Source: Thermoanaerobaculia bacterium
GTDB taxonomy: Bacteria > Acidobacteriota > Thermoanaerobaculia > Multivoradales > UBA5704
Assembly: GCA_036266195.1 (NCBI GenBank)
Contig: DATANP010000366.1
Location: forward strand, 1-59,882
Length of the DNA: 59,882 bases
Direction: 5' to 3'
Shown: piece by piece, positions 39,601 to 43,500 of the stretch
Position numbering within the stretch: position 1 is the first letter of the stretch
Layout: each line of letters starts with the position of its first letter
Notes under the pieces: model-generated
What the model was told of the DNA's origin: nothing
Database searches by the model: none
Seen by the model: only the letters and a program-made list of their open reading frames with translations
Position numbers and translations under genes: made by a program

Positions 39601-40525
39601 TGCCCGGCGCCGTTTCGAGCACCCGCTTCACATGGAGCGGCGAGAGCACGTCGCCGCCCGACATGATCAGGCGCAGGTGCGTGAGGCTGTCGAGCTGCGA
39701 CTCCACCATCTGCTGGAACAGACCGGCCGTGATCCACGCGGCGGTCACGCCGGCCCAGACCAGGAATCCACCCAGCTCCTCCAGGCTCGGCGTCTCGGGC
39801 GGCATGATCGCCAGCGCCGAGCCGTTGAGCAGCGAGTAGCTCACCTCCAGCGTGGTGGCATCAAAGGAAAGCGGCCCCAGGTGCAGGAAAACGTGATCGG
39901 CACCAAACTCCGCGAACCGCGAGCTGCGGGCCAGCCGCACCACGTTGCGGTGCGTGACCGCCACGCCCTTCGGCCGTCCGGTAGACCCGGACGTATACAT
40001 CACATAGGCCAGGTTCTCAGGAGAAACCCTCTTGAGGTCCTTGCCGTCCTTGCAGTCCTTTAGGTCCTCCAGGTCCTCCCAGCAGATCACCTTCGCCGAA
40101 GTCGCCGGCAACCGCTCCAGCAGCCCCCGCCGCGTGATCAGCACCGGCGCCGCCGTGTCCTCCAGCATGAAGGCCAGGCGGTCCTCCGGGTAGGCCGGGT
40201 CGAGCGGCGCGAAGGCGCCGCCGGCCTTGAGGATCGCCACGATCGCCACGACCGCCTCGGGCGAGCGCTCCAGGCAGAGACCCACGAGCCGGTCCGGACC
40301 CACCCCCTCCGTCACAAGGACCGCGGCGAGCGCATTGGCCCGGGCGTCCAGCTCGGCGTAGGTCATCTCCCCGCCGACATAGCGCAAAGCGAGCGCGTCC
40401 GGGGCGCGCCGGACGTGCTCCTCGATCAGCTCATGGATGGTGGCGTTCCTGGGATAGCTGACCTTGGTGTCGTTCCATTCCTCCAGGATCTGCGCTCGCC
40501 ATCGTTCGATGCCCTCTCCGATCAT
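24689..40525 (-). CDS. NRPS-B (5278 aa from ATG40525): A-T-(C-A-T)x4-C-[helical tail]
   Basis: Start taken at [20 protein letters not shown] (ATG40525, ATGA overlap with the upstream stop). The 79 codons upstream in the ORF track overlap the preceding T domain out of frame. T Ser codons at 38834, 35711, 32654, 29501 and 26348. HHxxxDG at 38285, 35156, 32066, 28925 and 25763 (HHVASDGWS). A3 cores near 39961-40010, 36851-36900, 33761-33810, 30611-30660 and 27481-27530. The protein ends ...RRSALSDQKRAALQKLLQRKAK. Confidence 0.95.
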   Translation of the reverse strand: MIGEGIERWRAQILEEWNDTKVSYPRNATIHELIEEHVRRAPDALALRYVGGEMTYAELDARANALAAVLVTEGVGPDRLVGLCLERSPEAVVAIVAILKAGGAFAPLDPAYPEDRLAFMLEDTAAPVLITRRGLLERLPATSAKVICWEDLEDLKDCKDGKDLKRVSPENLAYVMYTSGSTGRPKGVAVTHRNVVRLARSSRFAEFGADHVFLHLGPLSFDATTLEVSYSLLNGSALAIMPPETPSLEELGGFLVWAGVTAAWITAGLFQQMVESQLDSLTHLRLIMSGGDVLSPLHVKRVLETAPGITMVNGYGPTESTVFTSCYPMHSPEEVKSPLPIGRPIGNTRVAVVDQDLRLAPPGAEGELWIGGDGLARGYLHRPDLTADRFVPDAFWGTGERLYRTGDLVRWRADGLLEFLGRVDFQVKIRGFRVELGEIEAALAAHPEVAEAAVVVQGEGGDKRLVAFWVGRSDEEPDLRGFLAERMPPHMVPGAFVRMDALPLNTNGKVDRRALAAITPIVSRSVSAAPRTPTEEVLAAIWAEVLGISEVGIDEDFFDLGGHSLIATRLVSRVSTELGVDLALRAVFENPTVAGLASLVDEERSSAGGRIPPVLPVPREPLLPASFAQERLWLIDRLTPGQSVYNIPIALRLRGPLDVAALESAFNALVRRHESLRTTFAEVDGRPWQRIAPFEPIELTVVEAPEAWSLLVEDALRPFNLEHGPLVRVSLYRMVEDDAWLLLNLHHIISDGWSMDVLTRELAALYAGHPLPELPVQYADFAIWQREWLAGEVLDRQIAWWVEELAGAPTLLELPADRPRPTTPSFRGVRIDLRLPAALAVGVSRVARQGGATLFMTTLAAFQSLLGRYTDRRDVLVGSPVANRTRRELEGVIGFFANTLVLRGRLEDGSFRERLARTRASALGAYAHQDLPFERLVEELRIERSLAYNPLFQVVFAFQPPPMQGLALPGVTLELADLQGLTSKFDLFLSLWESGNGFAGTIDAAADLFDPSTLERFARCFETLLEGLVEQPDRPVSELPLLAAAERAQVVEGWNDTRFPYPREASIHELFEEQVRLTPGAVALRFPGGQMTYAELDARAGALAGILVEAGLGPDRLAALCLERSAEAIVSMIAILKAGGAFVPLDPSYPADRLAFMLEDTAAPVLITRRHLLDRLPASAARIVCWEDLSSLPSLPSFGSFPSAPSNLAYVMYTSGSTGRPKGVAVTHRNVVRLVRNTNFADFGADQAFLQLAPLSFDASTMEIWGPLLNGGTLVVYPPENPTLEELGAFLSWEGITSLWLTAGLFHQMVEARLASLRGLRQLLAGGDVLSPPHVLRVLQEAPGVTLINGYGPTESTTFACCYPMRSPEAVGATVPIGYPIGNTWVAVLDRGFQPGFQPVPPGVVGELYIGGDGLARGYLNRPDLTAERFVPDPIFGDGERLYRTGDLARWTADGIVEFLGRADQQVKIRGFRIEPGEIESALASHPDVGEAAVVVQGEGAEKRLVAFWVDRSDAEPDLRAFLSESLPVHMVPSAFVRLDTLPLNPNGKVDRRALAAVSVSGAVHPISTAPRTPTEEVLAAIWAGLLGLDRVGIEDDFFALGGHSLLATRLVSRLSSELGVDLSLRTVFEEPTVARLAARVDEARAEGRPAPPILPVPRTGDPLPASFAQERLWLLDRLTPGLPVYNVPLALRLSGELDRECLEAALNAVVERHEALRTTFREAGGSAWQVVAPFEPRPLPAIDLTPAEAREKEARLALLPFDLAAGPLLRAVLISLGETDHVLLLTLHHIVGDGWSLEVLARDLGAFYTAFRQGEVADLPPLRVQYADYSVWQREWLTGDVLADLVGWWRGELAGAPTVLEVPADRPRPAAQSFRGGLQKATLPSEVAAAVRGLARREGATLFMTLLAAFQALLHRLTGQPDVLVGSPVANRNRPEIEGLVGFFVNTLVLRGRFPDGATFRGAVATARRAALGGYAHQDLPFEQLVVELRVDRSLAYSPLFQVMFVLQSGGFPAPEMPGLRAETVALETGTAKFDLLLEARESEDGIHLTLEHAADLFDASTAARLLERFGVLLEAAAAEPDRTVSSLPVMSRAERSQVLEAWNDAALDVPEVCLHDLVAAQMARTPDAVALVGDAGERWTYADLDRRASRIAARLRELGIGPEIPVGVSLPRTPGMVAALLGVLRAGGCYVPLDPAYPRERLALLLKDTAAPVVITESWLAGELPDGPVDSGVLPGNLAYLIYTSGSTGRPKGVAIEHRSAVAFAVWARQVFGDEELAGVFASTSINFDLSIFEIFVPLCWGGRVILGANALALPGHPAAGEVRLVNTVPSAMTELVRMGGIPSSVRTVNLAGEPLRRSLARSITAERLLNLYGPSEDTTYSTFTVVPLSDREPTIGRPLAGSRVYLFDRHGNPAPIGVAGELCLGGAGLARGYLGRPELTAEKFVPDPLGNPGERLYRTGDLARWLPHGEIEYLGRIDHQVKVRGFRIELGEIEAALLAHPGVRQAAVMAMGEGADRRLVAWVAPAQLPDQLPDLRSWLAARLPDYMVPALFVGLEMLPLTPNGKVDRKSLPAPERQETAGSVSAPPRTATEEVLAGLWADVLGLEGVGIDDDFFSLGGHSLLATRLISRIADSLGVELTLRQVFESPTVRTLSARLDSTVSERRGAGLQPIRPLPRTGGDFPLSLSQERLWFLDQMEPGRPLYNIPYAARFAGPLDVPALAAALNALVRRHESLRTTFPKVAGEPRQRIADPDGRVQPLPVVDLSGLPAQRVGAVAGRLLADAALWPFNLEEGPILYTVLLRLAPERHEMLFSVHHIVSDGWSMDLVQRDLAALYAGEPLPGLPVQYADYTVWQRESLQGEALAAEASYWRGELAGAPTLLDLPLDRPRPAAQTYRGGTLAVSYPSQLAAEAQAFARRQGATMFMTLLAAFQALLHRLSGEGGDVVVGSPIAGRGRREVEGVVGFFVNTLALRGRFGEEGLTFGRLLARTRATALAAYAHQDLSFERLVEELRVQRSLSYNPLIQVLFTVQDFQGHVEAMRDVEASWHALSLDTVKLDLELDLNERLQGRAGYASDLFDAATVERLVGHLGVLLGAALRNPETPVAELPLLTDAEARQLRDWSGSAWVVDEPPVHIQFAARAALAPEAVAVEMNGEILTYDDLQAKAETLARHLRAAGVGHGSRVGLYLERSIDLPAAILGIWNAGGAYVPLDPNLPEARIAYLIEDAIQGQHAPVIVTRDPQPFEGVDVVSLNEVWAVAPSPAHRRYQGRDGEGSSSSLHDLAYLIYTSGTTGKPKAVQVDHHNLAHTMRASRLAFGFAPSDRMPCLAAFTFDIFLFELFGPLLGGGTAVLFALKPTLDVPALVESLDGMTLLHAVPALMREVVDAAARKRVGSTLRRLFVGGDAVPADLLADMRRVFPQAMPTVLYGPTEATIICSSHDASGDEGRSLLGRPLPGCVVELRDRNGQPVPLGVAGEVWIGGPGVTRGYLHRPDLTAEKFVEGWYCSGDLARRLPDGTLEFLGRIDNQVKLRGFRIELGEIESVIAQESAVRQVTVLAVGEGSQKRLAAFVVSSEAGWGGEDILRERFATQLPDYMTPSSVTFLDELPLTAHGKVDRKALALLAPSHARQTGEWVAPHTATEVALAELWASLLGVERAGLTDNFFDLGGHSLIATRLVSRISETFGIDLPLRAVFEAPVLSELVALVEAAEGVEGPAAPLVPVPRDGSDLPLSLAQERLWFLDQLAPGQPFYNIPCAARLRGPLDVGRLAAALDGLVRRHETLRTTFLRTGGEPRQRIWPAAHRALPVVDLSSLPPGTADALAEHILVDAGLMPFDLVQGPLLRTFLVRLSPEHHELLFSIHHIVADGWSTEVVRRDLIALYQGEPLPELPVQYADFAVWQLRNLTGEALDREAAWWREELAGAPTLLDLPLDRPRPPVQSHRGGAVPVSFPTELAEAVRGFARRQRATMFMTLLAAFQTLLHRVSGNREGADVVVGSPIAGRGRAELERLIGFFVNTLALRGRFSEEGLSFSRLVDRTRTTALAAYAHQDLSFERLVEELRVERSLSYNPLIQVLFSVQDFEGGAVAMKDVEMAWRVLPLRSSKLDLELDLDEHLQGRVGYAADLFDPSTVRRLVGHLEVLLAAAVQHPDLPIDELPLLTEAEVRQLRQWSGHSLEVDEPPVHVQFAARAALAPDAVAVEMMGESLTYGELQTRAEALARHLRAAGVGGGSRVGLLLERSLDLPAAILGIWNAGGAYVPLDPNLPEARLAFQIDEAIRDQDAHVIVTRDPKSMEGIHIVSLTEVWAEAPSPAQQGRDGEGSSSSLTDLAYLIYTSGTTGQPKAVQVDHGNLAHTMRAARQTFGIASTDRMPCLAAFTFDIFLFELFGPLLAGGTVVLFPLKPTLDVPALVDSLDGMTLLHGVPALMREVVDGASRKGVGSSLRRLFVGGDAVPADLLADMCAVFPRAVTTVLYGPTEATIICSSHDAHGDEGRALLGLPLPGCVLDLHDRNGQLVPLGVPGEVWIGGPGVTRGYLNRPELTEETFVAGWYRSGDLARRLPDGTLEFLGRIDHQVKLRGFRIELGEIEAVLAQEPAVRQAAVLAIGEDGTQKHLAVFAVVSEPHAVSGSEEMEDALRSRLAARLPEYMVPSSFTFVDTLPLTAHGKVDRKALARLAPARRQEAEWVAPATATEVGLAGLWSDLLGAERVGRRDHFFELGGHSLIATRLISRVSDAFGVELPLRSIFEAPVLADLASRVDAALAAGPDAAPVAPPIVPVSRDGDLPLAFAQERLWFSYLLAPERAQYIITAPLRLSGLLDVRALQSAFTEIVRRHEILRTTYEQREGRGVQRVSPPSLVALPVVDLGALPHEVREAEMLRIAALEETVPIDLRRGPVHRFRLVRMADDDWLLILSIHHVASDGWSTGILLQELADLYGGASLKPLPVQYGDYAVWQRRWLQGEALERLIGSWQHALEGAPVRINLPTDRPRPAVRANQGATLTMTLPKEVAAKVDAVSRRLGATPFMTFFAAYEVLLHRLTGHDDVLVGTPVAGRNRAETEGLIGCFVNTVVLRGRNEKGERSSFRELVGGVRSMALHAFAHQDVPFEKLVEALGGERNLAWNPLFQVFFALQNAPIGQVGLPGVTMTPVEVPSGVTLFDLALGLGEFRGEILGGMQYATDLFDASTIERWARHFRLLLEAALENPDLPIADLPRIAEPERLQLVATAEEPQPEETAEALQARLSAREEEVAERRSALSDQKRAALQKLLQRKAK
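24692..24868 (-). other. C-terminal helical tail of NRPS-B, homologous to the internal C-C linkers
   Basis: AEPERLQLVATAEEPQPEETAEALQARLSAREEEVAERRSALSDQKRAALQKLLQRKAK-stop. It aligns with 18009-18284 and 58373-58562 but stops before the IPRR/C-domain part. Confidence 0.85.
27537..27596 (-). repeat. In-frame GC-rich mini-palindrome inside the A domain of module B5 (encodes PSPAQQGRDGEGSSSS)
   Basis: Hairpin ccctcccctg(27562-27571)/caggagaggg(27577-27586). It lies in the loop just upstream of the LAYLIYTSGTTG core. The paralogous A domain of NRPS-D (56.6 kb) lacks it. Confidence 0.7.
30663..30735 (-). repeat. In-frame GC-rich mini-palindrome inside the A domain of module B4 (encodes PSPAHRRYQGRDGEGSSSS)
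   Basis: ccctcccctg(30690-30699)/caggagaggg(30714-30723) with a longer loop. Homologous site to 27537-27596. Confidence 0.7.
36915..36966 (+). repeat. AAGGAC 9-mer half-element inside the A domain of module B2 (read on the coding strand as SSLPSLPSFGSFPS)
   Basis: gaagggaaggacccaaaggacggcaaggacggcagggacgaaagg. It contains aaggacggcaaggac, whose exact reverse complement occurs at 40037-40051. Confidence 0.8.
40031..40079 (-). repeat. AAGGAC 9-mer half-element, opposite orientation, inside the A domain of module B1 (read as EDLKDCKDGKDLK)
   Basis: cttgaggtccttgccgtccttgcagtcctttaggtcctccaggtcctc. Same loop position (between WEDL and NLAYVMYTSGSTG) as 36915-36966. Confidence 0.8.

Positions 40526-43500: not shown

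Follow-up and report, generated by a model that had tools for sequence, protein, structure and literature searches.

The locus and the T/A-T junction

The stretch of DNA examined here (the window) comprises 59,882 nucleotides of a Thermoanaerobaculia bacterium and is the entire contig DATANP010000366.1 of assembly GCA_036266195.1, a fragmented, metagenome-binned genome (G000; 92% complete, 732 contigs) which is rich in nonribosomal peptide synthetases (NRPS) and holds more than 150 condensation (C) domains. All large genes of the window are carried by the minus strand. The subject of this report is a cluster built of a polyketide synthase-NRPS hybrid subunit (Hyb) and two NRPS proteins (NRPS-B and NRPS-C), and in particular the boundary of Hyb and NRPS-B, where a thiolation (T, carrier) domain is followed by an adenylation-thiolation (A-T) pair with no C domain between them. 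The remaining domains of the cluster are a ketosynthase (KS) and a thioesterase (TE), together with a two-helix hairpin designated LNK; no acyltransferase (AT) is encoded. The three genes and the elements of the junction are as follows.

40522-45942, minus strand: Hyb, 1806 amino acids (aa), KS - KS/AT-linker - T1 - C - A - T2 - acidic tail
24689-40525, minus strand: NRPS-B, 5278 aa, A-T-(C-A-T)x4-C-LNK, with LNK at the C-terminus
10824-24581, minus strand: NRPS-C, 4585 aa, A-T-C-A-T-C-LNK-C-A-T-C-A-T-TE
40573-40782, minus strand: T2 carrier domain of Hyb, residues 1721-1790, phosphopantetheine Ser 1750 (LGGHSL), codon 40695-40693
40525-40584, minus strand: acidic C-terminal tail of Hyb, 20 residues, net charge -5, putative docking tail
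40522-40525, minus strand: stop/start overlap ATGA, with the Hyb TGA at 40524-40522 and the NRPS-B ATG at 40525-40523
40466-40525, minus strand: N-terminus of NRPS-B, 20 residues, net charge -3, distal C-A-linker helix
38714-40426, minus strand: A-T of NRPS-B module 1 (A 34-509, T 535-604), followed by C, predicted initiation module

The original prediction, made from the letters of the DNA, had described Hyb as ending in a T domain (Ser codon at 40693) with an acidic tail, its TGA as overlapping the ATG of NRPS-B, and NRPS-B as opening with the distal half of a C-A linker directly before A-T, so that a C domain would be missing between the two subunits. This description stands in every part. 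The translation and Pfam agree on the end of Hyb, the ATGA overlap can be read from the sequence, the first 20 residues of NRPS-B match its own internal C-A junctions (AAERAQVVEGWNDTRFPYPREASIHE), and the domain order is indeed T and tail on one side and A-T on the other. The proposed search for a degraded C domain, performed with a profile built from the 14 C domains of the cluster and with every speed filter off, gave no hit better than E = 0.27, with negative bit scores, in the six frames of 40000-41500; a C relic at the junction is thereby ruled out. In the genome the sole C domain outside multi-module open reading frames (ORFs) belongs to a C-T protein on contig C685, which adjoins that contig's own NRPS, and the absence of a free-standing C is unproven because the genome is 92% complete in 732 contigs. 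The junction also does not resemble the two other kinds of boundary that could be considered. In a C/A split the upstream subunit ends in C, as is the case at the boundary of NRPS-B (ending in C and LNK) and NRPS-C (starting with A-T), while Hyb ends in T and a tail; for a COM-domain junction of the E/C type Hyb lacks the epimerisation (E) domain.

The comparison with homologous clusters, which had likewise been proposed, revealed the same T/A-T junction in seven related Holophagales-type loci, hence it is not an assembly artefact. Full-length homologues of Hyb share 77-92% identity, and those that are named come from Holophagales or Acidobacteriota metagenome-binned genomes. An A-T-starting gene follows the hybrid in L018, L019, L020, L021, L022/G401:C6 and G403:C230; of five sequences compared at the stop codon, four retain the ATGA overlap (the window, L019, L021 and G401), and L018 has a 57-nt spacer. 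Hardly any residue of the tail varies in orthologues whose overall identity is 77-92%, and the N-terminus of NRPS-B reads M..(A)WRxxILEEWNDT in all of them. More distant relatives are arranged differently. In L118 and L120 (62-64% identity) the gene after the hybrid (14448-24470 and 11310-20186, respectively) starts with a lone T without A, continued by C-A-T and so on, and L120 also has C-LNK; in L117 (63%) the hybrid has an extra C-A-T and the next gene reads C-A-T-C-LNK-C; and in Tunturiibacter (L034) a distant KS-T-C-A-T protein without a Hyb-type tail precedes a normal C-starting gene. In one 78%-identical homologue the hybrid sits after an A-T-C... gene as the last NRPS gene, so its position in the gene order is not fixed.

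As regards the first module of NRPS-B, its A-T shares 69% identity with that of module 2 over 603 residues, the WNDT helix included, and other A-T pairs are about 40-45% identical. From this it follows that the linker remnant was left by a module duplication whose breakpoint lay in the C-A linker. Residues 23-147 of GrsA (1AMU) align to residues 12-136 of NRPS-B across ILEEWNDT, and the first 20 residues of NRPS-B lack the basic LSxxKRxxL helix of C-starting subunits and contain no docking-in element. Since the A-T is N-terminal and neither a C domain nor a C relic lies ahead of it, it is best read, from sequence, as an initiation module. The remnant itself is thus real and conserved, and it does not hold as a sign of a removed C domain, given the lack of a relic, the duplication of module 2 and the alignment to GrsA. 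Of the two alternatives offered by the original prediction, an initiating A-T in a gene order that is not the biosynthetic order fits best, and use of the genes in order, although described correctly, is probably not the way in which the line works. It can be said that T/A-T is a real, conserved gene boundary across which probably no intermediate is handed; since the junction would then play no part in biosynthesis, it is most likely that no C domain is lacking there.

Further along NRPS-B, modules 4 and 5 share 77% identity in their A-T pairs and 69% in the C domains before them, which indicates a recent tandem duplication of the module. The A-domain code D-I-F-H-F-G-L-I-I is common to both modules and to the first A domain of up2, a protein of the neighbouring NRPS line.

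The hybrid subunit, putative docking elements and condensation domains

Pfam places in Hyb a KS (11-387), KS-AT-linker families, PP-binding (656-719), Condensation (746-1188), AMP-binding (1209-1693) and a second PP-binding domain. The translation of the KS retains the catalytic Cys (SACSTS) and both His residues (EAHGTGT and NIGHL), and T1 is of the peptidyl carrier protein (PCP) type (LGGHSL). Candidate trans-acting AT enzymes are encoded on other contigs of the genome (C397, C449 and C277), the one on C397 being a tandem-AT ORF. The pocket code of the A domain, D-I-W-E-I-T-A-D-D-(K), contains three acidic residues, because of which the code suggests a cationic, probably diamino, amino acid as substrate; a published Dab-type code, DVWQMIGDDK, likewise ends in DDK (PMC12283262). 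In the tree the C domain of Hyb groups with further C domains located after KS-T (support 1.0). KS-T-C-A-T, or a form of it with a degenerate KS whose catalytic Cys is lost and whose C-terminal half is missing, constitutes the N-terminus of seven other NRPS proteins in the genome, hence Hyb is of a chain-initiating type.

On contigs C67, C285, C371, C398, C506, C676 and C435 the NRPS N-terminus consists of a truncated, Cys-less KS, a PCP-type T and C-A-T (in C676 the truncated KS reads ...VQAGESTLGLAVH). This initiation architecture is recurring, is related to Hyb and is apparently undescribed.

The second group of features concerns LNK and the C domains around it. They are listed below, B_C5 standing for the terminal C domain of NRPS-B and C_C2 and C_C3 for the C domains on either side of the internal LNK of NRPS-C.

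24692-24805, minus strand: LNK at the C-terminus of NRPS-B, EALQARLSAREEEVAERRSALSDQKRAALQKLLQRKAK, net charge +4
18078-18191, minus strand: internal LNK of NRPS-C, net charge +5, proposed docking site of the Hyb tail
58412-58525, minus strand: LNK of up2, between C1 (58538-59845) and C2 (57059-58378)
24845-26164, minus strand: B_C5, HHVASDG intact, in the clade of C domains preceding LNK
18261-19598, minus strand: C_C2, the first tandem C, NRPS-C residues 1662-2107, HHIASDG intact
16674-18014, minus strand: C_C3, the C after LNK, NRPS-C residues 2190-2636, in a clade of its own (support 1.0)

Among the T domains of the window only T2 of Hyb has such an acidic tail. In the genome most T-ending subunits possess acidic tails of the type ..LS(D/E)EE..LL, C-starting subunits possess an N-terminal basic helix (LSPEKRALLxxLxxKK...IPRR), and a subunit with an acidic tail stands directly before one with a basic helix in at least five adjacent pairs (C167, C241, C627 and twice in C713). 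A profile of LNK built from 14 copies matched the profile of this N-terminal helix with an hhalign probability of 96% (E = 2.9e-9, 40 columns), therefore LNK is an ordinary docking helix with one extra helix. The tail (-5) and the LNK elements (+4 to +5) are opposite in charge, the N-terminus of NRPS-B being at -3, and the acidic tail of Hyb would pair with the basic LNK helix; the pairing of tail and basic linkers raised in the original prediction thus gains indirect support. Neither tail nor LNK had a meaningful match among PDB sequences. LNK is rare: a match at E <= 0.001 was obtained in 15 representative proteins of 1.84 billion, 400 other Acidobacteriota genomes yielded no convincing match, and all four genomes with a Hyb orthologue also carry it. 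In five related genomes it occurs at a boundary of C-LNK and LNK-C proteins, at a boundary of C-LNK and A-T proteins, in fused C-LNK-C, in N-terminal LNK-C and in cis behind KS-T-C-A-T. The last context is a natural fusion of KS-T-C-A-T with LNK-C (G403_C94; also G402_C76, whose KS is degenerate and whose LNK is preceded by the tail-like segment ALSEEKERLAL), and because of such Rosetta-stone evidence hybrid-type carriers are considered to feed the C domain after LNK.

Hyb, NRPS-B and NRPS-C together contain ten A-T pairs and ten C domains, with the surplus C located at C-LNK-C; the two counts are also equal in the G401 and G402 versions despite a different number of modules in NRPS-B. Tandem C domains in one module are found in NRPS-C (C_C2-LNK-C_C3) and in up2. 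The closest relative of C_C2 in the window is B_C5 (58% identity). Ten C domains ahead of an LNK detected by its profile (HMM) sit in one clade of 13 leaves (support 0.90), the remaining three leaves being the first tandem C of L117, which has an LNK-like linker after it, and two ordinary T-C-A domains of G403_C127. All C domains of the window that precede LNK keep HHxxxDG. Since NRPS-B has no TE, its terminal C must be a working condensation catalyst with the acceptor on another polypeptide, and by descent C_C2 should likewise be a working catalyst whose acceptor is found on another polypeptide. In G402_C68 and G404_C365 the joint of C_C2 and C_C3 is split over two proteins, C-LNK followed by LNK-C, and the first C has no following A-T in cis or in the adjacent gene. 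An epimerase-like role of the pre-LNK C domains was considered and rejected, since they share 45-58% identity with ordinary C domains and since NRPS-B could not hand its chain on without its terminal C.

Several further arrangements of docking elements and inserts were noticed in the genome. C218 (4417-37746, minus strand) encodes an NRPS whose N-terminal sequence suggests a fatty-acyl-AMP ligase (FAAL) and which ends in T-C-RQRAELSGRRDQLSAAKRELLEKRLRG-TE, the segment before TE being LNK-like; the next subunit reads A-T-(C-A-T)x4 and an acidic tail. Here an entire subunit seems to be inserted in trans at an internal docking helix, with the last C on one side and TE on the other, and this would be a second case of the kind proposed below for Hyb. 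C241 (1-36457, minus strand) holds a second T/A-T junction of the genome, where a seven-module subunit ending in T and a tail is followed by A-T-C-A-T-C-A-T, which also ends in T and a tail, and the next subunit starts with a docking helix and C. Between T and the next C, inserts of about 350 aa occur in C218 (gene 1, residues 1777-2123, with a sulfotransferase-like motif SPFRSGSTLLR) and also in C108, C112, C241, C540, C670 and C701.

A proposed starter subunit supplied in trans and its alternatives

What the sequences show directly is the order of the domains and its conservation, that LNK is homologous to the docking helix, and how the C domains fall into clades; the docking, the substrate and the branch chemistry are deduced from these. 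With a probability of roughly 0.55, Hyb is a separate plug-in starter subunit supplied in trans, so that two chains would be started and then merged at C-LNK-C. Hyb, as a self-contained chain starter, would make an acyl or polyketide-acyl amino acid on T2, and the A-T of NRPS-B would start a second, unacylated peptide chain, which B_C5 would pass to T1 of NRPS-C across the C/A split. The acidic tail of Hyb would dock at the internal LNK of NRPS-C, C_C3 would use the unit bound to T2 as donor, and C_C2 would join the upstream peptide to the free amine of the residue borne by Hyb, the steps of C_C2 and C_C3 taking place in either order. Finally, TE would release a single branched lipopeptide. 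This is the simplest scheme that uses every domain in cis order. The more specific proposal, that the starter docks at a hairpin between tandem C domains and that an acyl-diamino acid is spliced in trans into the middle of a peptide to give a branched, doubly N-acylated lipopeptide, is tentative; in that form the starter may serve two adjacent lines, and dual priming by trans docking of this kind is undescribed.

A number of observations speak against this model. It requires the double acylation of one diamino acid; the cluster has no AT domain and T1 of Hyb is of the PCP type, no primer being evident for the KS-T1 pair; and literature searches for a particular Dab code, similar to the pocket of the Hyb A domain, found nothing. 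The window holds three LNK elements and one tail, and the binding partner of the terminal LNK of NRPS-B is unexplained if B_C5 passes its chain to T1 of NRPS-C. In G402 the corresponding C-LNK precedes LNK-C and not A-T, hence the acceptor of B_C5 may be T2 of Hyb, which would speak for another order. In the midpoint-rooted tree C_C3-type domains share one side of the root with the C domains following KS-T, and their placement near these acyl-accepting C domains has a support of only 0.68. Furthermore, the relatives are close kin, so the counts of conserved loci are not independent.

The genes could instead be used co-linearly from Hyb through NRPS-B to NRPS-C, with C_C2 or B_C5 docking the tail by LNK and joining T2 of Hyb to T1 of NRPS-B in trans, and with T2 of NRPS-C skipping C_C2 to feed C_C3. 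Ten C domains would then match ten condensations, and the conservation of the ATGA overlap points to coupled expression of the Hyb and NRPS-B genes, but C_C2 and B_C5 are each covalently preceded by a T of their own, the natural donor, and in one homologue the hybrid comes after the A-T-C gene. NRPS-B does keep an elongation-type C-A-linker helix that is absent from other A-starting subunits of the genome; however, GrsA shows such a helix to be compatible with initiation, and NRPS-B of G402 has the same helix, yet only its own terminal C and the following LNK-C lack a cis partner. A basic LNK and an acidic tail suit this route as well, but docking helices lie N-terminal to the C that receives the docked donor, so C_C3 is indicated and not C_C2. 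Co-linear use is for these reasons improbable.

A second scheme, to which we likewise give a small chance, makes the A-T of NRPS-B an elongation module, for which C_C2 acts in trans, and leaves initiation to the A1 of NRPS-C only: the N-terminal half of NRPS-C (A1 and A2) would feed C_C2, NRPS-B would add five residues, and the chain would run over B_C5-LNK to T2 of Hyb and over LNK-C_C3 into the C-terminal half of NRPS-C and TE. The relay of C-LNK to Hyb to LNK-C_C3 stays as in the C-LNK and LNK-C order of G402 and G404_C365, every LNK gets a tail as partner, and it is accounted for why the helix is kept in NRPS-B and not in NRPS-C. Nevertheless, the line would have to begin and finish on a single protein, nothing was seen that could tether the N-terminus of NRPS-B to C_C2, the A1 of NRPS-B must have changed from initiation (in G402) to elongation, and the adjacency of C-LNK and A-T in at least six loci becomes a coincidence.

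The third explanation concerns the upstream NRPS line, which is formed by up2 and up1 (C-LNK-C-A-T-C-A/T-C-A-T-TE), has its own TE at the end and is separated from Hyb by a 2.2-kb gap containing a YhgA/Rpn-type transposase gene and a 21-bp tandem array. Hyb could belong to this line only and dock at the LNK before C2 of up2, in which case NRPS-B and NRPS-C would be an unrelated line with a spare or modifying C, and T/A-T a mere adjacency. In G401 and G403 the upstream line starts with N-terminal LNK-C, without its own initiation module, beside Hyb, and the transposase-type gene with the repeat array fits a rearranged region. Against it, the stop codon of Hyb overlaps the start of NRPS-B, C_C2 would be left without a role despite its intact HHxxxDG and conserved clade, and L018 and L019 have Hyb and A-T without any upstream NRPS line, so in these loci Hyb must work with the NRPS-B/NRPS-C line; we regard this explanation as unlikely. 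Finally, a decaying or non-functional arrangement in which C was lost and no single defined product is made is suggested by the fragmented, metagenome-binned assembly and by the split appearance of the neighbouring up2/up1 junction, and it is very improbable since seven loci keep the architecture with intact catalytic motifs and a near-invariant tail, and no C relic exists.

The surroundings of the cluster can be described briefly. Housekeeping genes occupy the window below 10.8 kb. An A domain of the upstream line is split over two ORFs with a GTGA overlap at 52604-52607, up2 stopping at about profile position 444 of 485 and up1 beginning at about 454. The YhgA/Rpn-type gene (47132-48088, minus strand; Pfam Transposase_31 and DUF4351) lies between the TE of the upstream line and Hyb, and its position hints at rearrangement at that spot. 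The array at 46288-46544 consists of about 11 degenerate 21-bp tandem repeats with 64-74% matches, located 350-600 bp upstream of the Hyb start codon. A promoter and terminator scan of 45800-48300 was uninformative.

Relation to known synthetases and significance

Of the described systems the closest to the plug-in starter model is the dual-priming icosalide synthetase IcoA of Burkholderia gladioli (Jenner et al. 2019), in which the C domain directly after an elongating C is an embedded, chain-initiating one and two chains come together on one carrier (PMC6553374; reviewed in PMC10510592). Common to IcoA and the model are one line with two chain starts and one TE, two tandem C domains in one module, and the division of tasks whereby the second C installs a new acyl unit bearing a nucleophile, to which the first C attaches the upstream chain. 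In IcoA, in contrast, a single protein holds both C domains and the whole line, and a 3-hydroxy fatty acyl thioester serves as the second starter, its hydroxyl being the nucleophile, whereas here an amine is proposed, and an acyl-aminoacyl unit, built on a separate KS-T-C-A-T subunit that docks at a hairpin between the C domains, would take the place of that starter. The candidate second starter is not a fatty acyl thioester drawn from primary metabolism and is bound to T2 of a dedicated subunit; for that reason the cluster is filed as a variant of the icosalide type and not as a member.

The proposed docking would resemble that of the PAX type, where the C-terminal docking domain (CDD) of PaxB and the N-terminal docking domain (NDD) of PaxC form a three-helix bundle at PCP/C junctions (PDB 6TRP; reviewed in PMC9113145). 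A short helical extension after the carrier, a helix just before C, opposite charges and an element portable between domain types are the points of likeness. The elements described here differ in that no sequence similarity of theirs to any PDB chain was detected, LNK has two helices, and LNK is also located inside proteins and after C, not just at N-termini. The first module of NRPS-B can in turn be compared with GrsA (PheA, PDB 1AMU) and TycA, which have an N-terminal A-T without a C domain, GrsA itself carrying the segment that was called a C-A-linker remnant. Unlike GrsA, the A-T of NRPS-B lies directly behind a gene ending in a carrier domain and is a recent duplicate of the next elongation module (69%).

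Condensation partners on different polypeptides are familiar from split NRPS modules (C/A at the XU fusion point) and from the acylation in viomycin biosynthesis by VioO and VioM. Such systems employ free-standing C or A-T proteins, the VioO/VioM type acylating the side-chain amine of a diamino acid, while here the partner in trans would be a complete PKS-NRPS bimodule, and it is the main synthetase that contains the C domains.

Genome mining tools read NRPS genes in order, and under the plug-in starter model that rule would give a wrong, linear lipodecapeptide for this cluster. If the model is true, the arrangement would be a natural route to merge two separately started chains by means of a small docking hairpin between C domains, and it would be a candidate part for the engineering of branched lipopeptides as well as useful for product prediction in many clusters of uncultured Acidobacteriota.

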